The position numbers and the translations under genes are program-made. Below, piece after piece: positions 2,493-10,698 of a stretch of DNA of 21,308 nt. This stretch comes from a virus. Taxonomy: Duplodnaviria; Heunggongvirae; Uroviricota; Caudoviricetes. Location of the stretch: IMG/VR virus record IMGVR_UViG_3300007747_000074, positions 1 through 21,308 of that record; one strand, written 5' to 3'. A model generated the notes under the pieces. The model made no database searches and was not told where the DNA came from. It saw only the letters and a program-made list of their open reading frames with translations. Within the stretch, counting starts at the first letter, position 1, and the number at the start of each line of letters is the position of its first letter.

Positions 2493-2795
2493 TTACCAGT
2501 CGTTCCCGGAGGGTGAAATAATCCCGTTCAGCGGTGTCTGCCAGTCGGGGGGAGGCTGCATTATCCACGCCGGAGGCGGTGGTGGCTTCACGCACTGACC
2601 ATCGAGCGCAGCAACATCACGCTGACGCATCTGCATGTCAGTAATTGCCGCGTTCGCCAGCTTCAGTTCTCTGGCATTTTTGTCGCGCTGTTCTTTGTAG
2701 GCGATGGCGTTATCACGGTAATGATTAACACCCCATGACAGGCAGACGACGATGCAGATAACCAGAGCGGAGATAATCGCGGTTACTCTGCTCAT
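2493..2795 (-). pseudogene. Rz/Rz1 spanin remnant: Rz N-terminus fused in frame to Rz1 C-terminus (rzpR-like)
   Basis: First ~65 aa ([33 protein letters not shown]) resemble lambda Rz, then the frame continues into the proline-rich Rz1-type C-terminus ([30 protein letters not shown]); Rz coiled-coil/C-terminal domain and Rz1 signal peptide/lipobox are absent; 4-nt overlap with the endolysin stop. Confidence 0.7.
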
Positions 2796-3268
2796 ACCTC
2801 AATCTCTCTGACCGTTCCGCCAGCTTCTTTGAATTTTGCAATCAGACTGTCAGCCTTATGCTCGAACTGACCATAACCAGCGCCCGGCAGTGAAGCCCAT
2901 ATATTGCTGCAACGGTCGATAGTCTGACGGATATCACCGCGATCAATCATCGGCAAAGCGCCACGCTCTTTAATCTGCTGCAGCGCTACAGCATCCTGAC
3001 TTTCTGGAGAAAAATCTTTCAGGCCAAGTTGCTTGCGGTAGGCATCCCACCAGCGTGAAAGAAGCTGGTAACGTCCAGCGGCTGTTGATTTGAGTTTCGG
3101 ATTTAGCGTGACAAGTTTGCGGGGGTGATCGGAGTAATCAGTGAACAGTTCGCCACCGACAATAACATCATAACCGTGATTTCTGGTTTTCTGCCGTCCG
3201 TTATCTGTTCCTTCTGACCATGCCACCATATCAAGGAAAGCTTTACGCTGGGAATTAAGTGTCTGCAT
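2792..3268 (-). CDS. Endolysin, lambda R-like lytic transglycosylase
   Basis: 158 aa, near-colinear with lambda R as I recall it (..[81 protein letters not shown]..), including the catalytic-glutamate SEGT context; immediately follows the holin. Confidence 0.85.
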
Positions 3269-3271
3269 TAA

Positions 3272-3622
3272 TTACTCCTTATGGGCACCGAACTTGTTAC
3301 CGATGACCCTCATTGCCGCACCACGAATAGCATCAACACCAATCAGCCCCACCCCACCACCAATGGCAACAGAAAGTGATTTAGGCCATCCGACATACTC
3401 AAGCGCGGATGCAAAGGTCAGCGTCAGAGCACCACAAAGCAGAATCTCAAGCGTTTTTCGTTTCCAGCCGCCGCCACCGCCAAAATAGGCAATGCGCAAA
3501 CCAGCCATAATAATTGACATAACCACTGCACCCAGCGGCGTATCTCCACGCCACCAACTTTGTAAGAGTTCCAGTAAGTCAGGCCAGGAATGAGGGGCAT
3601 TGTGCATTTTCATAAGCCTCAC
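3272..3622 (-). CDS. Holin (lambdoid S-like, possible dual start)
   Basis: 116-aa ORF with hydrophobic helices (AVVMSIIMAGLRIAYF; ILLCGALTLTFASALEYV; VAIGGGVGLIGV) and charged C-terminal tail; N-terminus MRLMKM offers closely spaced Met codons like the lambda S107/S105 dual-start motif; sits directly upstream of the endolysin. Confidence 0.65.
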   Translation of the reverse strand: MRLMKMHNAPHSWPDLLELLQSWWRGDTPLGAVVMSIIMAGLRIAYFGGGGGWKRKTLEILLCGALTLTFASALEYVGWPKSLSVAIGGGVGLIGVDAIRGAAMRVIGNKFGAHKE

Positions 3623-3710
3623 CTCCGAGAGTTCGGATGGTGCTAAGTGTAAGATTCAGGCTCTCAGGCTTGCTAACAAGAAGTCGAGGATGTTTCCAGA
3701 GCCTAACAAC

Positions 3711-3737
3711 GAAAAAGCCCCGGGACATGCCGGGGCC
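3711..3737 (-). terminator. Intrinsic terminator on the - strand, downstream of the moron gene
   Basis: GC stem gccccgg (3717-3723) / ccggggc (3730-3736) with 6-nt loop; on the - strand the stem is followed by TTTTTC (complement of 3711-3716); no T-run on the + strand side. Confidence 0.5.
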
Positions 3738-3830
3738 AGATGGAGTGCCAGATTAAGCTTCTGGCGGTATATACTCGTGTTTGATATCGTTAAATCGCCA
3801 AAAGTAACAATTCAAACAAAGAGGATTTTT

Positions 3831-3992
3831 ATGTCTGAAAAAAACAAACCACAAGGTGAAAATAAACCTCAGCAACCCGTGGCACCAAAACCAACTCCAA
3901 CACAAAGTACTACAGACTTTGCTACACGTCGTGTTTTTGTTGGAGATTCTGCCGACTCAGTCATTGAACATATAAAAAAACAGCCGAGATAA
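3831..3992 (+). CDS. Hypothetical small Pro/Gln-rich protein (53 aa)
   Basis: ATG at 3831 preceded by agagga SD with about 7-nt spacing; translation MSEKNKPQGENKPQQPVAPKPTPTQSTTDFATRRVFVGDSADSVIEHIKKQPR; its 3' end overlaps the convergent moron CDS by 32 nt; low-complexity composition makes coding status uncertain. Confidence 0.25.
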   Translation: MSEKNKPQGENKPQQPVAPKPTPTQSTTDFATRRVFVGDSADSVIEHIKKQPR

Positions 3993-4530
3993 ACATCGCC
4001 GCTACCGGAGCAAGGATGGTATACATCCTTGCTTTATCGAGACTCGTGCGGATTTTCTCATTTTCCAACAGTAACTCTCTTGCTGTATCACTCAAGTCAA
4101 CAAGGCGATACCTTCGTATAAGCGGCAATAACTTATCAGGTCCTAAATATCCTGCATCAGCGAATATTTTAAAGCTCGAGGGCTCCATATCCTTATATTT
4201 TTCATGATATAGATGATCAGGAGGGGCATTGATCAGGCCCCTAACCTTCACAGATAAATCAGTACATACCAAGTAAATGGCGCACCATGTCCATAGTAAT
4301 GTAAATGTGGTAATTCCGGCGGTGAGAAAATCGAAATTAGTTTTCTGTGTCAGCAATAAAAAAGATGAACCAATTCCAACAATCTGAATGTTCAGAAGTT
4401 TGTATCCATTCTCAACATTGGTTTTGTTAGAAAGATGAATCTCTCGTATCGTCTCTTCCCCTTGTTTTTCAAGATAATCGACGAGCTCATCATCTACTCC
4501 TAAAAAATAATCTTTAGGTAGTTCTCTCAT
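3961..4530 (-). CDS. Hypothetical membrane protein, AT-rich moron between Q/tR' and holin
   Basis: 189-aa ORF with strong SD (tggaggtgag) before ATG at 4530; acidic N-terminal ~40 aa, then hydrophobic segments (LLNIQIVGIGSSFLLL; FDFLTAGITTFTLLWTWCAIYLVCT; C-terminal MYTILAPVAAMFISAVFLYVQ); AT-rich versus neighbours; no family recognised. Confidence 0.6.
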   Translation of the reverse strand: MRELPKDYFLGVDDELVDYLEKQGEETIREIHLSNKTNVENGYKLLNIQIVGIGSSFLLLTQKTNFDFLTAGITTFTLLWTWCAIYLVCTDLSVKVRGLINAPPDHLYHEKYKDMEPSSFKIFADAGYLGPDKLLPLIRRYRLVDLSDTARELLLENEKIRTSLDKARMYTILAPVAAMFISAVFLYVQ

Positions 4531-4635
4531 CTCACCTCCACATCCTGTACTGAAAACAATTTTACCAGAATGTCTCGATTCTAGGTATTCCGCCAGGAAT
4601 CGCGCTCCAGAAATGAAACATCAGGTTCACCAGTA

Positions 4636-4668
4636 CCAGAAACAACAAAACCCGCTCAATGGCGGGTT
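4636..4668 (-). terminator. Intrinsic terminator on the - strand, candidate tR' (target of Q antitermination)
   Basis: Stem cccgc (4651-4655) / gcggg (4662-4666), extendable by A-T pairs, loop tcaatg; on the - strand followed by TTTTGTTGTTTCT; lies about 85-115 nt downstream of the Q-like stop, the expected geometry for pR'-tR'. Confidence 0.45.
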
Positions 4669-4751
4669 CTGGTAAAGTTCATGCGCTTGGTTCGCCTCGC
4701 GATACAGCTTTGCGAAGCATACCGGAATTGAAGCAGTTTATGCGTAAAAAA

Positions 4752-5207
4752 TCAAGCTATTTTTTGAGCAAATGATTCTCGCATGGGAATATATAGGGCA
4801 TACTCAGCAACAGCCAACCAATTAGCAATTCGCTTTTCGCATGTGCTAAAACACCACTCAGGATGTGCATCATTTAGCAATTCAGCCATTTTGCGCTTAG
4901 TCATCCCCCGTCCTTCATACCGTTGCCGGAGGACACTAATCAATCCAGGATGCTCTGCCAGCACCTCACTTATGACTCGATCAATACATAACGCCTCTGC
5001 ATCAGTACAATGCGCCAGCCAGCTCTTTTGCTTGCCGTTGATCATCTCTCGCAAAAACGCTTCCAGCTCAGCTTTCTCTATTCCCGCTTTTTTCATTCTG
5101 CGCAGGGCTTCATTGATGGCTGTTTTCGTCAATTTTTTGGATGCCAACAACTGATTGAACATATTTCCTGACCTGCCACCGCCAATATACGACCAGCGCC
5201 CCCACAT
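4752..5207 (-). CDS. Putative late-gene antiterminator (Q-like), start uncertain
   Basis: ORF 4752-5414 (220 aa) overlaps the upstream YbcO-like CDS by 124 nt in another frame, so an internal start (Met70 at 5207, or Met85 at 5162) is more plausible; Cys-containing motifs (HCTDAEALC, EWCFSTCEK); assignment is mainly positional (last gene before tR'/lysis cassette). Confidence 0.4.
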   Translation of the reverse strand: MWGRWSYIGGGRSGNMFNQLLASKKLTKTAINEALRRMKKAGIEKAELEAFLREMINGKQKSWLAHCTDAEALCIDRVISEVLAEHPGLISVLRQRYEGRGMTKRKMAELLNDAHPEWCFSTCEKRIANWLAVAEYALYIPMRESFAQKIA

Positions 5208-5290
5208 ACGCAGTTTGCCCTGAATCCAGACACTTTCCAGCGTGGCGAGACGAAGGTGTTCTCCGCTTTTTCCTGTATTCGTTGGGTAAA

Positions 5291-5581
5291 TCACAAATAT
5301 CCCTCCTTTCTCCAGATTTCTTGTGTGCGAAAAACACCTTCTGCATGCATCAGGCGTAATTCTTCTTTGGTGTAATCGCTGGTTTTTACCCGCCCGTCGA
5401 TTAGATCGTGGCATGAGCTACAGGCAATCGCCGCCTGCATATCGTGTGGTTTTGTCGCTGTTCCGCACGTTCCCGCCAGTCGGTAATGCGCCAGCACAGA
5501 CGTTTCCGGATCGTGATTGCAGTAGCCAGGAATTCTGACGGTGCACATCTGCCCCCGCGCCGCTTTACGTAAATCCACCAT
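5291..5581 (-). CDS. YbcO-like (DUF1364) putative Zn-binding nuclease, nin region
   Basis: 96 aa; MVDLRKAARGQMCTVRIPGYCNHDPETSVLAHYRLAG.CGT.TKP..ACSSCHD resembles DLP12 YbcO as I recall it (same length, conserved Cys/His); start overlaps the upstream gene stop (TAATG). Confidence 0.7.
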   Translation of the reverse strand: MVDLRKAARGQMCTVRIPGYCNHDPETSVLAHYRLAGTCGTATKPHDMQAAIACSSCHDLIDGRVKTSDYTKEELRLMHAEGVFRTQEIWRKEGYL

Positions 5582-6180
5582 TACGCAAACTCCAGCAGCT
5601 GCGCGGTCACATTTTCGACTTGTTCCGGAGAGGAAAATTTACGGAACAGAATCCAGTTCCACAGCACATTCAGAACAGATTTATAAACCTGCTGAAACTC
5701 GGTTTCGTCCATATTCGCAAAAGCGATGGATTTCGCCCGACGCCCATGGCTACCATCAGGATAAAGATGCTCGGTGTAAAATCCGGCCTGAATGGTTACC
5801 CACTCGCGGAAAGCCTCAAACGACTTTAGCAATGCCGTATCCCGGGTTCTGCGTGTCGCAACTGTATTCAGATATTGCTCTGCGGCTTCGCTCAGAGCTG
5901 GCGTATGTTCCCGGCCTACTGATTCACATAGGTAATCAACGAATCCTGAAACCAGCTTTCGTTCGCGAGGCGTGATCGCCCCACCGACCGGAGTCCAGTA
6001 ATCGAATCCCAGTTGCAGGAGTTTGAAAAAACGCTTGTGGAATGCGTAGTTACGCACACGCTTAAAGTCTGCGTGTATCCACTCGCCTATTTTGATTTGA
6101 TGCAAAAAATCGCAACTCTCCGGCGTCGCCGGGAGAAGTAGTCCAGAAGAGGTTTGTTTGACCAGTTGTATATGCGCCAT
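5581..6180 (-). CDS. Phage nin-region protein (DUF1367-like), function unknown
   Basis: 199-aa ORF translationally coupled to the YbcO-like gene; family name recalled from lambdoid prophage nin regions, not verified. Confidence 0.55.
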   Translation of the reverse strand: MAHIQLVKQTSSGLLLPATPESCDFLHQIKIGEWIHADFKRVRNYAFHKRFFKLLQLGFDYWTPVGGAITPRERKLVSGFVDYLCESVGREHTPALSEAAEQYLNTVATRRTRDTALLKSFEAFREWVTIQAGFYTEHLYPDGSHGRRAKSIAFANMDETEFQQVYKSVLNVLWNWILFRKFSSPEQVENVTAQLLEFA

Positions 6181-6458
6181 TTCTCAATCTCTCGATGGCG
6201 CAGTGCAGCAGATGCCAGTTGTTCAGGCTGACGAATAAAGTATAAATAAACTGGCTATGGTGTAAAGCTCCACATAACATGAACAAACACTACATATCAA
6301 ATAGCTGATACAAGGATAGAAATACAACACTTATTATTAAAAACGATTAGATAAATTACATTTTAATGTTATGAAAAAGTTCTTTTTTATCATAACATTT
6401 CAACAAAAGCATTACAGATGCACATCCCGTCATCATCAATTATTTAAGGTGGTTAAAC

Positions 6459-6545
6459 ATGGAAAATAACAACTATGCACATCTCGCTCCTTTTTTATCC
6501 GTAATCCTTTTCGCTGGCTGTTTTATATGGGCATTATTTTTATAA
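6459..6545 (+). CDS. Candidate small hydrophobic peptide (28 aa)
   Basis: ATG at 6459 preceded by strong SD aaggtgg (6446-6452); hand translation MENNNYAHLAPFLSVILFAGCFIWALFL, stop TAA 6543-6545; single predicted TM helix; in an AT-rich non-coding island; upstream hairpin (6365-6399). Confidence 0.35.
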   Translation: MENNNYAHLAPFLSVILFAGCFIWALFL

Positions 6546-6992
6546 AGTAGCCGCATGATTAGTTTCTGGAATCATGTTTCCCACTCAAATCATTAACATT
6601 TGATAAGATATATCTAAAAGGATGCCTTTACATTATTTGATGCGTATATGATTTATTTATATGCACAGTAAAGGCATCCTGGAAATAATCAAGATTAATG
6701 ATATATTGCTTATCTCATCCCCCACTGTCTTTCACCCGGAAAACATTTATCGTTAAAAATATATCATAAGTAATTAAATTGAAATTTCAGAACACAACTA
6801 ATGCACACAATAAGATTCAGTAACAGTAATCTATGCGGACTATATCGAGATTTTTTAGTTAAACTTTAATAAGTTATTCCTAACACACAGAATGCACAAA
6901 CTAAAAGTAAAACAAATAGTTATACGAAAAACAACCATATTGATTCTATCTTCTCCTCTAATCAACATATCAATTATGTGTTTCATAACAGC

Positions 6993-7028
6993 TTGACATA
7001 ACCCTCAAAAAGGTGCATTTATAATGCA
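6993..7028 (+). promoter_or_regulatory. Candidate promoter with NsrR-like inverted repeat overlapping the -10, upstream of the YeaR-like gene
   Basis: Perfect TTGACA (6993-6998) and TATAAT (7020-7025) but 21-bp spacer; inverted repeat TGCATT-tat-AATGCA (7014-7028) resembles the core of the NsrR site (ATGCATTT-N-AAATGCAT) as I recall it. Confidence 0.4.
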
Positions 7029-7047
7029 TGTTTTATGGGAGGTGGTT

Positions 7048-7389
7048 ATGACACACAAGAGAATTCCTAAAGACTGGGTAATCAAACGCTCAACTCCGTT
7101 CTTCACAAAAGAGAACGTACCTTCAGCGTTATTAACACATCATAATACAGCAGCAGGTGTTTTTGGACAGTTATGCGTGATGGAAGGTACTGTAACATAT
7201 TATGGTTTTGCTGATGAGAATGCTACTGAACCGGAGATAAAAGTAGTCATTAATGCTGGCGCTTTTGCAACAAGCCCACCACAATACTGGCACCGTGTTG
7301 AACTAAGCGATGATGCTCAGTTTAATATTAACTTTTGGGTAGCTCCAGACTTCTCAGGCGAAAAAGTCTATACCGCAAAAAAAGAATAG
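7048..7389 (+). CDS. YeaR-like DUF1971 protein (cargo gene)
   Basis: 113 aa from ATG 7048 (SD gggaggtgg at 7037-7045); RSTPFFTKENVPSALL...CVMEGTVTYYGFADENATEP...INAGAFATSPPQYWHRVE..DDAQFNINFWVAPDF parallels E. coli YeaR as I recall it; ORF first ATG is 7024. Confidence 0.7.
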   Translation: MTHKRIPKDWVIKRSTPFFTKENVPSALLTHHNTAAGVFGQLCVMEGTVTYYGFADENATEPEIKVVINAGAFATSPPQYWHRVELSDDAQFNINFWVAPDFSGEKVYTAKKE

Positions 7390-7471
7390 CCACGCTATAA
7401 ATATCTTATTAACTAGTCCCGGCGTGGTTCTTTCCCCGCTGGGTCTTTTACTCAGATTAGTAGTCTACGAA

Positions 7472-7579
7472 TCAGAGCCTCCGTCTGCCAGTTCGGATTC
7501 GTACCTCGCAGAGGTCTTTCCTCGTTACCAGTGCCGTCACTATGACGGTTAAACAGATGACGATCAGGGCGATTAACAT
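7472..7579 (-). pseudogene. hok-family toxin remnant (HokD/RelF-like), degenerate at both ends
   Basis: Hand translation from ATG (complement of 7577-7579): MLIALIVICLTVIVTALVTRKDLCEVRIRTG matches the HokD core, then diverges (GRRRL-stop); the +1 frame continues QTE... suggesting an indel; no HokD-type MKQQKA N-terminus (in-frame stop upstream). Confidence 0.5.
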
Positions 7580-8026
7580 CGTTAAACGTCTTGCAGGACG
7601 CGTAATGTTAACTGGGGCTTTTCTCTATCTACCTTTGGTGTTCATGCCCGAGGCAGATAGCCTCAAGCACCCACAGCAATTCTAACTATCCAATACATCA
7701 CTGCCAACACTTTAAACTCTTACCCTTTAAAACAAGAACAAAATTCAACCAATCAGCATTGGGCGTATACTCATATCCTAGAGAAAACAACTCTTTCTGT
7801 ACTATTTATATCCATATGATTTATAAGCATTTGCCACTTGCCATAGCCGCACAATGACAGTTTGCCATTTGATGTCAATAGATAAAAATGATCGTTTTCA
7901 ATGAGTTACATACTTGCAAGGCGTTGCACATCAGGCCCGATTACGTCAGTATCAAAAGATTACAGATGGTGCATTACTGCCACCTCGCCTTAATGTTCCA
8001 GAACTCTCCAACTTGAGGAATTTTCA

Positions 8027-8800
8027 ATGACATCCTTTCAATTATCTTTGATTTCTCGTGAAATTGACGGCGAAATAATACATTTACGTGCCAAAGATGG
8101 TTACATAAACGCCACATCAATGTGTAGAACTGCGGGCAAACTGCTCTCTGATTACACTAGACTCAAAACTACTCAAGAGTTTTTTGACGAATTATCACGC
8201 GATATGGGAATTCCCATATCGGAGTTAATTCAATCATTTAAAGGTGGAAGACCTGAAAACCAAGGGACATGGGTGCATCCTGACATCGCTATTAATCTAG
8301 CGCAGTGGCTATCGCCCAAATTTGCAGTCCAGGTTTCAAGATGGGTTCGTGAATGGATGTCAGGGGAAAGAACTACAGCAGAAATGCCTGTACATTTAAA
8401 ACGGTACATGGTTAATCGTAGTAGAATTCCTCACACGCACTTTTCTATTCTTAATGAACTGACATTCAACTTGGTTGCACCTCTTGAACAAGCAGGGTAC
8501 ACACTCCCAGAAAAAATGGTTCCTGACATTTCACAAGGAAGAGTATTTTCACAATGGTTAAGAGATAATAGAAACGTAGAACCCAAAACATTCCCTACCT
8601 ATGACCATGAATATCCCGATGGTCGCGTATACCCTGCAAGGCTGTACCCAAATGAATATTTAGCAGATTTCAAAGAACATTTTAACAATATTTGGTTGCC
8701 GCAATATGCCCCGAAATACTTCGCTGACCGGGACAAAAAGGCTCTCGCCTTGATTGAAAAAATTATGCTACCTAACCTCGATGGCAATGAACAGTTCTAA
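8027..8800 (+). CDS. KilA-N domain protein (antirepressor/Roi-like)
   Basis: 257-aa ORF, SD gagg about 9 nt upstream; N-terminal region (..INATSMCRTAGKLLSDYTRLKTTQEFFDEL..TWVHPDIAINLAQWLSPKFAVQVSRWV..) has the KilA-N/APSES-type signature; opposite strand to surrounding phage genes. Confidence 0.7.
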   Translation: MTSFQLSLISREIDGEIIHLRAKDGYINATSMCRTAGKLLSDYTRLKTTQEFFDELSRDMGIPISELIQSFKGGRPENQGTWVHPDIAINLAQWLSPKFAVQVSRWVREWMSGERTTAEMPVHLKRYMVNRSRIPHTHFSILNELTFNLVAPLEQAGYTLPEKMVPDISQGRVFSQWLRDNRNVEPKTFPTYDHEYPDGRVYPARLYPNEYLADFKEHFNNIWLPQYAPKYFADRDKKALALIEKIMLPNLDGNEQF

Positions 8801-8806
8801 ATGATT

Positions 8807-8832
8807 AGCCAGCCCCATAAGGGCTGGTTATT
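8807..8832 (+). terminator. Intrinsic terminator downstream of the KilA-N gene
   Basis: Stem ccagcc (8809-8814) / ggctgg (8821-8826), loop ccataa, followed by TTATTT (8827-8832). Confidence 0.4.
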
Positions 8833-8920
8833 TAGTATTATCAACCCCAGCGGCAAATCGAATACACCACCAGCGCCACCGCCATCGCAATTCCTACCGT
8901 TGTGAATGCTTCAGGCCAGG

Positions 8921-9424
8921 TCATCGTAAAACATCCTCCACGCTTATAAGTCCGCTTCGCTCCAGGTAGTCCATCACTTTATCCGGCAATTTGCAGCCCG
9001 GTTTCGGTTTCTTCAGTTGACTAACCAATTGTTTAACCAGCATTGTCAATTCGCGAACTTGTTTCCCGGGCTCCCCTTTGCCCTGAAGCAGGGCAGCGCG
9101 GCAAGCGTTCCATCCCTCAGCATATGTTTCAGTTACACCATCGAGATGGCATGTAAGCAAATCCATTTCTTCCGGCACTACGGGCGCTGGAAAAACGGCA
9201 TAGGGTGGCGTCCATTTTGGCGCTTTATCTCCAGCCGAACGCTGATACCAGTCATCCGGTTTGTATTCATAAAAATCACCAACTGGCTCTGCTTCCAGCG
9301 ATGCCAGAGCAATTTTGAATAATTCGCCCTCTACCCGTGCCATCCCTGAATTGGGGTGGCATTTCTCAATCGCTATTTTTAATTTAGCTTCTTCGATTAA
9401 TTGCTTTTTGGTTAATTCAGTCAT
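8921..9424 (-). CDS. Hypothetical phage protein (167 aa)
   Basis: Intact ORF on the same strand as the replication genes; no family recognised. Confidence 0.5.
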   Translation of the reverse strand: MTELTKKQLIEEAKLKIAIEKCHPNSGMARVEGELFKIALASLEAEPVGDFYEYKPDDWYQRSAGDKAPKWTPPYAVFPAPVVPEEMDLLTCHLDGVTETYAEGWNACRAALLQGKGEPGKQVRELTMLVKQLVSQLKKPKPGCKLPDKVMDYLERSGLISVEDVLR

Positions 9425-9585
9425 TTTTCATTACCGCCCTTTCGGGCCGCCTCCTAATATTTTGAGGGTGCAGCCCCCCCCTCCGGTTAAGGATTAAATT
9501 TTATTTACAGTGCTAAATTTAATTATTCAGATTTGGATTATGATTTCTCTTTCAGTTCACGCAGTTCCCTGATTGTTAATTTGGC

Positions 9586-10023
9586 TCACAACAGCACATC
9601 CTGAAAATTACCCTGATAGAACGCCAGTACACGCTGCATGACTTCGCTCTTCCGGCACTCGCGACAGATTATATTCAGACGCCTGTCATAGCGGCGTATT
9701 TCTCCGTCTGGTAATGACCAGATAAGGTCCGGATCAACTACAGCAGGTTTCTTCACCTTTGCCCTCGATAGTTTTTTGCGGGCGTTTTGCCAGTCTTTAC
9801 GCGCCTGCTCAGACGGGAATAATCCGTAGCCTGAATTGTAAACATCACCACTGGCGACCAGTTCTCTGGCGAGAGTGCTTATGTAATACCTTGATGCACC
9901 GGTTTTAGCCTCCAGAGCCCGTAACGTCTCGCGACCGCTCAGACGTACAAGTTCAACAACCTGCCCTTTAATTTTTTCCCGCTCTTCTGGTGTAAATACT
10001 TTTGCCATAGGTGCCTCCGGCAA
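9586..10023 (-). CDS. Hypothetical phage protein (145 aa)
   Basis: ORF abutting the upstream 224-aa gene (stop 10024-10026, start at 10023); possible HTH-like segment (GRETLRALEAKTGASRYYISTLAREL); no family recognised. Confidence 0.5.
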   Translation of the reverse strand: MPEAPMAKVFTPEEREKIKGQVVELVRLSGRETLRALEAKTGASRYYISTLARELVASGDVYNSGYGLFPSEQARKDWQNARKKLSRAKVKKPAVVDPDLIWSLPDGEIRRYDRRLNIICRECRKSEVMQRVLAFYQGNFQDVLL

Positions 10024-10698
10024 TCACTTTTCCGATGCAACATGGCGGGAAGAATCAGTAATCTGTCGTACAATATCCCTGTGCTTGTTCAGCTCCCGCA
10101 GCGCGGCGCAGACACGCTCCCACTTCTGGACATGATTTTTCGCCCGACGCAGTTCGCGGTTTGCCATATGCAGTGATGGTAAAACCAGGTCATCCGCTCG
10201 CGTTTCAGTAAACGATGGCAGCGACTGCACAATGTCCGCCACAGTTTCTGTTTTAATATCTTCCTGTGTTGCAGCCTCCTGTACTGGTAACGCAACACCT
10301 GCGGGCTGAGGAAAGGCCTTACCAGCAGTTTCCGCTACCGATGCTGCTTTCGGCTCTGCTGGTAAATTATCGCCCGGTATGCAGTAACGAAATTTACCGC
10401 CCTGATTTACGCGAAGCAGACGACCTTTGCTGATTGCCATTGCCAGCGTTGAAGCCACTTTGCGTGATGTGGTACCAAACAATGTAGCCAGCTCATCCGC
10501 CGTTTGTGGTCCACGTTGTTCAATCGTCGCAGTTAAATCGCTCTCTGAAATTTTCGCGACTGTTGCCGTGGTAGTTTCTTCCGGCAGTTCTGCCGGCGCT
10601 GGCTGTTCCTGCTGAACGTTGTTATCAGCCACACGCCAGGTGTACGCGCTTTTATCAACGAAACCAGCCTTTTTCAGTTCCCATAGTTCGTTCAGCAC
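10024..10698 (-). CDS. Hypothetical phage protein (224 aa) with possible winged-helix segment
   Basis: ORF downstream of the DnaC-like gene; segment [32 protein letters not shown] resembles a wHTH; acidic/Ala-Pro-rich low-complexity middle. Confidence 0.5.

Follow-up and report, generated by a model that had tools for sequence, protein, structure and literature searches.

Type I toxin open reading frames (ORFs) are short, with fewer than 60 amino acids (aa), and their products are hydrophobic and membrane targeted. A type I system further includes an antitoxin small RNA, cis-encoded or divergent, that pairs antisense to the toxin mRNA; the mRNA is kept translationally inert by leader structure over the ribosome-binding site, and toxin expression arrests growth or damages the membrane unless the RNA counteracts it. 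Hok, of the hok/sok system, has about 50 aa and a conserved Cys pair, and its locus carries an overlapping mok frame and a long fold-back (tac/fbi) structure; the toxins of the shorter pairs (ShoB/OhsC, IbsC/SibC, ZorO/OrzO, DinQ/AgrB, and TisB/IstR-1) belong to a size class of 18 to 29 aa and are almost entirely hydrophobic. The small inner-membrane regulators MgrB, AcrZ, MgtS, KdpF, CydX, and PmrR/MgtR are single-transmembrane (TM) proteins of 28 to 49 aa that were found only by dedicated small-protein searches. Lambdoid prophages also carry morons, such as bor and lom of lambda, which are autonomous accessory genes of deviant composition and patchy presence that lie between phage modules and have a promoter and a terminator of their own. 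Here, we describe a 28-codon ORF at positions 6459 to 6545 (+ strand) of a stretch of viral DNA of 21,308 nucleotides (nt) (IMG/VR record IMGVR_UViG_3300007747_000074, positions 1 to 21,308; referred to below as the window). The window is a Rac prophage, and its flanks are 97 to 99.9% identical to Rac of Escherichia coli K-12. We put the probability at about one-half that this ORF is a real small membrane-peptide gene on a mobile cassette and that its product is, most likely, a Hok/ShoB-like toxin under RNA-level control.

As with hok/sok, the predicted product is a small membrane-helix peptide, and the locus lies in AT-rich accessory DNA of lambdoid prophages. A candidate antisense promoter is situated in the 5′ portion of the toxin transcript and is directed back toward the toxin promoter, and the leader could occlude the ribosome-binding site. 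In many prophages the cassette also lies physically beside hok, in convergent orientation. However, the peptide has no sequence similarity to Hok and is little more than half its length, the cassette has neither a mok-like overlapping frame nor a long fold-back structure, and the Rfam sok model matches the neighboring hok locus (7516 to 7672) only, not the cassette. The locus shares with the short type I toxins its size class, its hydrophobicity, its place in an intergenic island, and its having been missed by gene callers, and its translation may likewise be leader limited; as in ShoB and the Ibs peptides, the sequence ends in hydrophobic residues. In contrast to those systems, none of whose protein or RNA families matches the cassette, it has no divergent or overlapping small RNA (sRNA) gene with a recognizable terminator, and the loci are not tandemly duplicated.

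The small inner-membrane regulators resemble the predicted peptide in having a few conserved polar or aromatic residues in the helix, and their genes, too, have normal ribosome-binding sites. Those genes, however, are chromosomal and usually lie in or beside the operon of their partner, whereas this one sits on a mobile prophage cassette and its product has no sequence similarity to them. Because the neighbors of the cassette change, no partner can be inferred from its context. Like the lambdoid morons, the cassette lies between phage modules, has a lower GC content (0.29 to 0.35, versus about 0.5 in the flanks), is patchily distributed among similar prophages, and is oriented independently of the lytic operons. 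It differs from them in that the ORF is far smaller than those of described morons, in that scans of the window gave no promoter by consensus and no intrinsic terminator, and in that the cassette is fixed at the edge of a variable slot while the adjoining cargo changes. In where it lies, in its composition, and in its patchy distribution, the cassette matches what is expected of a prophage moron, and the ORF has the size and hydropathy of a type I toxin ORF. Judged by its sequence, the cassette resembles the short type I toxins and the layout of hok/sok but is a member of none of those families, and we class the ORF family as a sequence family of its own among small hydrophobic prophage proteins and candidate type I toxins.

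A conserved reading frame for a 28-residue peptide

The two features with which the argument begins are the following.

6446 to 6452, + strand: Shine-Dalgarno (SD) sequence AAGGTGG, 6 nt ahead of the ATG at 6459, read from the sequence.
6459 to 6545, + strand: 28-codon ORF, supported by its translation, constant length, and codon-type conservation.

The ORF runs from an ATG (6459 to 6461) to a TAA (6543 to 6545) and translates as MENNNYAHLAPFLSVILFAGCFIWALFL. From hydropathy, the peptide is predicted to have a polar N terminus of 8 to 10 residues followed by a single C-terminal TM helix; the Kyte-Doolittle mean over residues 10 to 28 is 2.3 in the window and 2.3 to 2.7 across all clades. A first-pass annotation, made from the letters of the window, had proposed this start codon, a near-consensus SD at 6-nt spacing, and a short polar head with one TM helix; the start and SD are where it placed them, and the hydropathy agrees with the head-and-helix layout. 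The SD reads AAGGTG in clades A and B, AAGGTA in clade D, and AAAGTG or AAAGCG in clade C. The same annotation had spoken of a noncoding AT-rich island. The AT richness is borne out (the GC content over 6200 to 7000 is 0.285 to 0.35, versus 0.47 to 0.56 in the left-hand coding flank), but the region is not noncoding; it is an accessory slot that holds DUF1971, an apparently decayed hok/sok, and KilA-N. As many as 17 ORFs of at least 20 aa overlap positions 6180 to 7030, and the length of the small ORF is therefore unremarkable by itself. Given that both ORF size and mRNA fold are within chance, the case must rest on comparison with related sequences.

Two collections were compared. Complete E. 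coli genomes, GenBank phages, IMG/VR, and one-genome-per-species contigs supplied the 87 loci of the first. The second, in partial overlap with it, comprised about 114 cassettes retrieved with the noncoding upstream block as bait and thus was not selected on the ORF. Among the copies not cut by a contig end (some 200 fetched copies in total), the ORF was intact, with exactly 28 codons and with the ATG and TAA kept, at 87 of 87 loci in the first set and in all of the approximately 114 cassettes in the second. These represent 20 DNA variants and 16 peptide variants. Within the ORF, 33 of 84 sites vary and there are no indels, while the adjoining leader has 69 variable columns out of 107 and 10 gap columns. 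The variable sites fall 6/10/17 on codon positions 1/2/3; counted as minimum changes, the distribution is 6/12/22 (chi-square P of about 0.007). Synonymous codons are used for Ile16 (ATC, ATA, or ATT) and Ser14 (TCC, TCT, or TCG), with further synonymous variation at Asn3, Asn4, His8, Phe18, Cys21 (which also has one rare Phe variant), and Ala25, and replacements within the helix are conservative (V/I, A/V, L/V, and F/C). Pairwise dN/dS between clades is 0.06 to 0.37 in the frame of the ORF; of the five other frames, four give values of about 1. Under random substitutions at the observed density, the ORF would stay open only 12 to 16% of the time per long branch.

Reading-frame conservation and the synonymous pattern in related prophages, which the first-pass annotation had proposed as checks, point the same way: the frame is never broken, and purifying selection is visible. 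This coding-type conservation is largely established by the comparison, and it supports the earlier suggestion that the ORF encodes a peptide. From it, we infer that the ORF probably is a genuine, translated, and so far unannotated gene for a 28-residue single-TM peptide. An antisense ORF of 27 aa (6473 to 6556) was also considered and was rejected because its start, stop, and length differ among clades and it begins in the nonhomologous flank.

Of the 1,176 matching genomes, just 5 cover less than 80% of the cassette. One decayed copy (locus L211, 1500 to 1660) retains the block, leader, and SD, while a deletion of about 65 nt has removed the start codon and codons 1 to 21; it adjoins a truncated hok, annotated as lacking its N terminus. 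A match in a GC-rich metagenome-assembled genome (locus L007) proved to be spurious.

Database and literature searches

The lack of a family match is likewise largely settled, within the scope of the searches. Three variants of the peptide were absent from an exact look-up in 15 billion predicted proteins, and sequence searches of Pfam, NCBIfam, PHROG, PADLOC, and PDB gave nothing meaningful beyond two weak profile matches on the hydrophobic stretch and the Cys: one was an Rz-like spanin PHROG (E = 0.0089 over 14 residues), and the other was the Lp6.6 lipoprotein family (E = 0.027). The Hok/Gef profile gave no match in Pfam or NCBIfam at E values up to 10, and no overlapping mok-like upstream frame is conserved, because the leader contains indels. 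For Ldr, Ibs, TisB, ShoB, DinQ, and ZorO, there was no match in Pfam, NCBIfam, or PHROG, the presence of a model for each family there not having been verified; with the same proviso for the RNA models, none of the cognate sRNAs (Rdl, Sib, IstR, OhsC, AgrB, and OrzO) was matched by Rfam within 5500 to 9000, where only sok was found. The statement of the first-pass annotation that the peptide does not match the E. coli small toxins Hok, Ldr, TisB, Ibs, ShoB, DinQ, and Zor is supported, as no known toxin or small-protein family was matched. Searches of phages, plasmids, viral contigs, and species-representative genomes returned no longer homologue. In the literature, a full-text search for the peptide strings came back empty, nothing in the Sakai small-gene supplement matches, and a preprint on Hok diversity, the hokW/sokW paper, and the Pro-SMP paper make no mention of the ORF.

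Among the matches listed, none of the genome records annotates the small ORF. Common gene callers have a 90-nt minimum, and the ORF, at 87 nt including the stop codon, is 3 nt below it. It was presumably missed because it is just under this usual cutoff and also lies within a 7.6-kb segment that has been lost from K-12 Rac. The cassette is absent from the K-12 prophages Qin (which has rem at the same position), Rac, and DLP12, and small-protein surveys in K-12 hence could not see the ORF. If it is translated, a widespread small-protein gene has been missed by every annotation pipeline in some 22% of complete E. coli genomes, including those of clinical lineages. The type I toxins and small membrane proteins of E. 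coli have been mined intensively, and a new family would be a useful addition; the ORF would further lend itself to use as a test case, as it is short, conserved, single copy, and next to hok, and it could reveal how tiny membrane peptides and sense/antisense transcription are employed by prophages at the accessory hotspot between the replication genes and Q.

Cassette boundaries and prophage setting

The ORF is the right-hand end of a conserved unit of about 220 bp, which consists of an invariant block, a leader of about 85 nt, the SD, and the ORF. Its left edge is the following element.

6330 to 6374, strand unspecified: invariant upstream block CTTATTATTAAAA..G.TTA...AAATT..ATTTTAATGTTATG, the most conserved part of the cassette.

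Mean pairwise identity is 0.91 to 0.96 in this block and 0.45 to 0.8 around it, exceeding the conservation of the ORF, and the block motif has a single match in the window, with none expected by chance. The conservation profile passes from the invariant block through the poorly conserved, indel-bearing leader to the SD and ORF, and homology is lost after the stop codon. In an independent context (locus L044), homology begins at the block. At the other end, homology among diverged clades ceases 1 to 2 nt past the stop codon (window position 6546) whatever lies beyond, and in the search of E. coli genomes every diverged copy aligned to position 222 of the 224-nt query, which again is window position 6546. 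Both boundaries are thus largely established by alignment. The block itself may serve as a promoter or UP region for the small gene, as the 3′ end of an antisense RNA, or as both.

To the right of the cassette lie DUF1971 (in the window and the 94 to 96% clade), a convergent hokD, an S8 peptidase with an AAA protein, a 752-aa NTPase, or a Sll1717-family ATPase. The convergent hok is 106 nt away, measured between stop codons, in 44 of the 87 first-set loci. To the left are DUF1367, a ydfU-type gene (as in Qin), an IS element, or unrelated DNA. As both neighbors vary, the unit of about 220 bp moves, or stays, as one piece. Beyond the ORF stop, individual loci (L002, L004, L014, and L211) carry hokD and then QueH, an S8 peptidase and an FtsH-like AAA protein, the 752-aa NTPase, or the Sll1717-family P-loop ATPase; the slot behaves like a defense or accessory hotspot of which the cassette is the left border. 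In locus L014 (approximately 1500 to 2830), an IS3-family element with transposase ORFs of 301 and 136 aa lies between the DUF1367 promoter region and an intact cassette. A bidirectional terminator follows the ORF in locus L004.

In the prophages of Rac and Qin type, the cassette occupies the left edge of an accessory slot between the replication genes and a DUF1367-DUF1364-Q (or ydfU-Q) module. It is present at a coverage of at least 80% in 1,171 of 5,426 complete E. coli genomes (about 22%), usually once and at most in two copies; ST131 strains are among the carriers. E. coli K-12 MG1655 Rac has a clean deletion of window positions 2776 to 10335, with 2775 joined to 10336, whereas Rac of the window is undeleted. 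The deleted segment comprises the lysis genes, the Q-type antiterminator operon, the small-ORF cassette, DUF1971, hok, and KilA-N. Strain 50579417 (NZ_CP033884.1) carries an identical and annotated region. On its - strand are trkG, ynaK, the lysis genes, and an operon of DUF1133 (a Q-type antiterminator), DUF1364, and DUF1367; beyond DUF1367 come the unannotated gap with the ORF, DUF1971 (+), a Hok/Gef gene (-), and KilA-N (+), followed by the replication genes (ydaV and ydaT) and the immunity region on the - strand. From this layout, early rightward lytic transcription runs on the - strand, opposite to the direction of the small ORF.

Leader and candidate antisense RNA

Between the block and the start codon, two overlapping structures can be drawn in the + strand.

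6365 to 6378 and 6386 to 6399, + strand: inverted repeat (hairpin I1), with 14-nt arms that are 93% complementary and a 7-nt loop.
6387 to 6398 with 6442 to 6452, + strand: candidate anti-SD pairing of the right arm with a segment that includes the SD AAGGTGG, with some covariation and an RNAalifold prediction in its favor.

The hairpin had been noticed in the first-pass annotation as a near-perfect repeat (6365 to 6374 and 6390 to 6399); it is real, and its arms are longer than was described. Over 13 leader variants, 92% of the cells in the 8-bp core are standard pairs, and the core pairs in all clades; the hairpin is the RNAalifold consensus structure (-4.55 kcal/mol). The only substitutions in the core turn G-C into G-U and U-A into U-G, as would suit an RNA of the + strand. 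The left arm is invariant and no change affects both sides of a pair, so there is no true covariation. The arms may also be read as the gene's own promoter, with a -35 element ATGAAA (6372 to 6377), 16 nt, and a -10 element TAACAT (6394 to 6399), which together match 8 of 12 consensus positions. From the sequence, the 5′-leader structure and the -35/-10 promoter are equally good readings of the arms. A third copy of the CATAACAT motif, at 6273 to 6283, is not conserved in other clades and was dropped.

The candidate anti-SD helix pairs in 86% of cells over the 13 leader variants, versus 22 to 55% with the partner slid, and two of its pairs have changes on both sides. RNAalifold predicts it unaided once the left arm is removed, with energies of -6.8 kcal/mol in clade B and -4.6 kcal/mol in clade C. 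In the minimum-energy fold of the window, the SD is predicted to pair locally with AUCAUC (6431 to 6436). The SD is unpaired with a probability of 0.26 to 0.48.

On the opposite strand, two elements may define an antisense RNA.

6439 to 6465, - strand: candidate antisense promoter, with -35 TTTCCA (6465 to 6460), a 15-nt spacer, and -10 AATAAT (6444 to 6439).
6318 to 6345, - strand: weak hairpin with a U-rich tail, CGUUU-UUAAUAAU-AAGUG and then UUGUAUUUCU, the only terminator-like candidate for the antisense RNA.

The -35 hexamer of this candidate is the complement of the TG of the start codon and the following GAA A, and a transcript would start at about 6432 and read leftwards through the leader into the invariant block. 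The promoter was called as TTTCCA-16-CATAAT in locus L047 and as TTTCCA-16-TATGAT in locus L004; in the window it went uncalled because the spacer is 15 nt. All 22 leader-tail variants have a -10-like hexamer with A2 and T6 at a distance of 15 to 16 nt (TATGAT, CATAAT, AATAAT, TATTCT, or AACAAT). The terminator-like element, which was called in loci L047 and L004, has a 5-bp stem with three G-C pairs. Its stem varies as CGCTT/AAGCG and, with both sides changed, as CACTT/AAGTG in locus L044, and the G·U pairs in clade A suit a - strand RNA. If signals on both strands overlap in the block, it would be expected to be more conserved than the ORF, as is the case. These leader and antisense features fit a sense/antisense pair of the hok/sok kind, but individually they are weak.

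Proposed mechanism and alternative explanations

We propose that the peptide would insert into the inner membrane and act there as a Hok/ShoB-like membrane-perturbing toxin. In the leader, the SD would pair with the upstream anti-SD, for which the 5′ hairpin arm would compete, and a cis-antisense RNA from the promoter over the start codon would run back through the leader into the invariant block. The ORF would be expressed from the lysogen in the manner of a moron, its orientation being against early lytic transcription, and after induction, transcription reading through from the early rightward promoter would contribute a further antisense transcript, of full length. This part of the reading, a membrane-perturbing peptide with RNA-level repression, is tentative, and in our estimate its likelihood falls somewhat short of even. 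A type I toxin is, in short, plausible but unproven.

A bolder version, which we regard as unlikely, is that the cassette represents an unrecognized type I toxin-antitoxin family whose antitoxin promoter lies within the start codon region and which, together with hok, would form a two-toxin switch tied to the lysogeny-lysis decision. Given the tail-to-tail placement with hok, the two toxin transcripts would overlap at their 3′ ends, and early lytic read-through would then serve as a second, global antisense transcript.

Several observations weigh against a toxin under RNA-level control or against the evidence on which it draws. As regards the gene itself, clade C (the Qin-type clade and the commonest) has a weakened SD, sampling is confined to four clades, all of them from prophages of Escherichia or Shigella, and dN/dS is also low in the antisense frame that shares wobble positions, so that the codon-position signal alone cannot exclude that frame. 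As regards a toxin, the usual single copy, with two at most, is unlike several multicopy type I loci, and the leader and ORF fold no better than shuffled sequences (z = -0.27). The anti-SD helix is unfavorable (+3.5 kcal/mol) in the window's own clade. The consensus scan gave no + strand sigma-70 site matching at least 9 of 12 positions, and promoter-like sites are as frequent in shuffles as in this AT-rich DNA. A position-weight scan yielded rival candidates on both strands, including a second - strand site with its -10 element in the right hairpin arm, and neither scan gives a unique promoter on either strand. The terminator-like stem is very weak in the window's clade, and the U-tail is absent in locus L044. 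Finally, within 5500 to 9000 Rfam matched no antitoxin RNA family over the cassette, the only match being sok at 7516 to 7672, about 1 kb away.

Alternatively, the gene may be real but not toxic. The peptide could be an inner-membrane moron product, expressed in the lysogen, that binds a larger membrane protein, whether from the host or from an incoming phage, and modulates it, as MgrB, AcrZ, MgtS, and small superinfection-exclusion factors do. There would then be no dedicated antitoxin RNA, the upstream block would be a promoter with an UP element, and the hairpin arms would be the -35 and -10 elements. All of the coding evidence applies equally to such a gene, as do its orientation against lytic transcription, its place in an AT-rich accessory slot beside other cargo, and its usual single copy per genome. 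The SD is strong and the start context A rich in clades A, B, and D, and the mRNA has little overall structure. The arms read ATGAAA-16-TAACAT, -TAATAT, or -TAGCAT, the right-arm changes falling at -10 positions 3 and 4, which are the least constrained, and the conserved polar or special helix residues P11, S14, C21, and W24 suggest a specific interaction face. On the other hand, there is no partner to name, conservation of the block exceeds that of the ORF and what a plain promoter usually needs, and the anti-SD covariation and the retained antisense -10-like hexamers are left unexplained. The convergent hok 106 nt away at 44 of the 87 first-set loci also counts against this reading. We consider a nontoxic modulator a serious but less likely explanation than a Hok/ShoB-like toxin; it would add one more entry to the small-protein catalog.

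It is improbable, in our view, that the ORF is untranslated and that the cassette is kept as an sRNA, on either strand, or as divergent control signals upstream of the DUF1367/ydfU-Q operon, the open frame being a mere by-product. The most conserved element of the cassette (6330 to 6374) is indeed noncoding, - strand promoter-like sites occur both within the leader and over the start codon, conservation nearby extends to a strong - strand promoter-like site (TTTACA-16-TATACT, 6266 to 6239) and its leader, and the SD is degraded in clade C. However, constraint at the RNA or DNA level yields neither three-base periodicity nor runs of synonymous codons, and it does not explain the lack of indels in 84 nt next to a leader with 10 gap columns or the end of homology right after the stop codon in every context. 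Moreover, no Rfam family matches, and apart from the hairpin, the region folds no better than shuffled sequences on either strand.

Least credible of all is that the ORF is the remnant N-terminal signal or anchor of a longer gene cut by cargo insertion, or a tiny lipoprotein or Rz1-like precursor processed at its Cys: the weak spanin (E = 0.0089) and Lp6.6 (E = 0.027) matches and the lipobox-like L-F-A-G-C of the window's clade speak for it, but the same stop inside a conserved module in every context shows that the end did not arise from independent truncations, no longer homologue was found in the phages, plasmids, viral contigs, and species-representative genomes, and clade A lacks a basic n-region. 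A bacterial lipoprotein or Rz1-type o-spanin, which would have a conserved lipobox [LVI][ASTVI][GAS]C behind a basic n-region and a hydrophobic core, was rejected, as the lipobox occurs only in clade A (FAGC), the other variants being VLCC, VFCC, VSCC, and VCCF, with a forbidden residue at -1.

Neighboring features

The hok-like ORF of the window (7472 to 7579, - strand) is short, at 35 aa (MLIALIVICLTVIVTALVTRKDLCEVRIRTGRRRL). The usual MKQQKA is missing from its N terminus, and it stops earlier than the 51-aa HokD, apparently because of a frameshift. The Rfam sok model matches at 7516 to 7672 (- strand) with 52 bits, below its gathering score of 59. By its sequence, the hok/sok at 7472 to 7672 looks like a decaying locus.

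At 6181 to 6266 (- strand), the strong promoter-like sequence TTTACA-16-TATACT (6266 to 6239) and the leader that precedes DUF1367 are nearly identical across clades, and the same control region also precedes a different (ydfU-type) gene in Qin-like prophages. This has the look of a control region shared by Q operons, whichever gene comes first.

A perfect 13-bp inverted repeat (6619 to 6631 and 6668 to 6680; AGGATGCCTTTAC and GTAAAGGCATCCT), with 36 nt between its arms, is followed by TTTTAG on the - strand. The 94% clade retains the repeat with some changes, and termination on the - strand or protein binding are possible roles for it.

Another small ORF with a hydrophobic product, of 43 aa (MKHIIDMLIRGEDRINMVVFRITICFTFSLCILCVRNNLLKFN), lies at 6855 to 6986 (- strand) and has no obvious SD. 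Most of its sequence recurs in locus L014 beside different cargo, and it may be another unannotated small gene or may have arisen by chance. In K-12 Qin (locus L088, 12320 to 12590, - strand), an unannotated frame upstream of ydfU is a homolog of an ORF of about 92 aa (MAHDTKLHNS...) that precedes the ydfU-type gene in Qin-like prophages, for example in locus L047.

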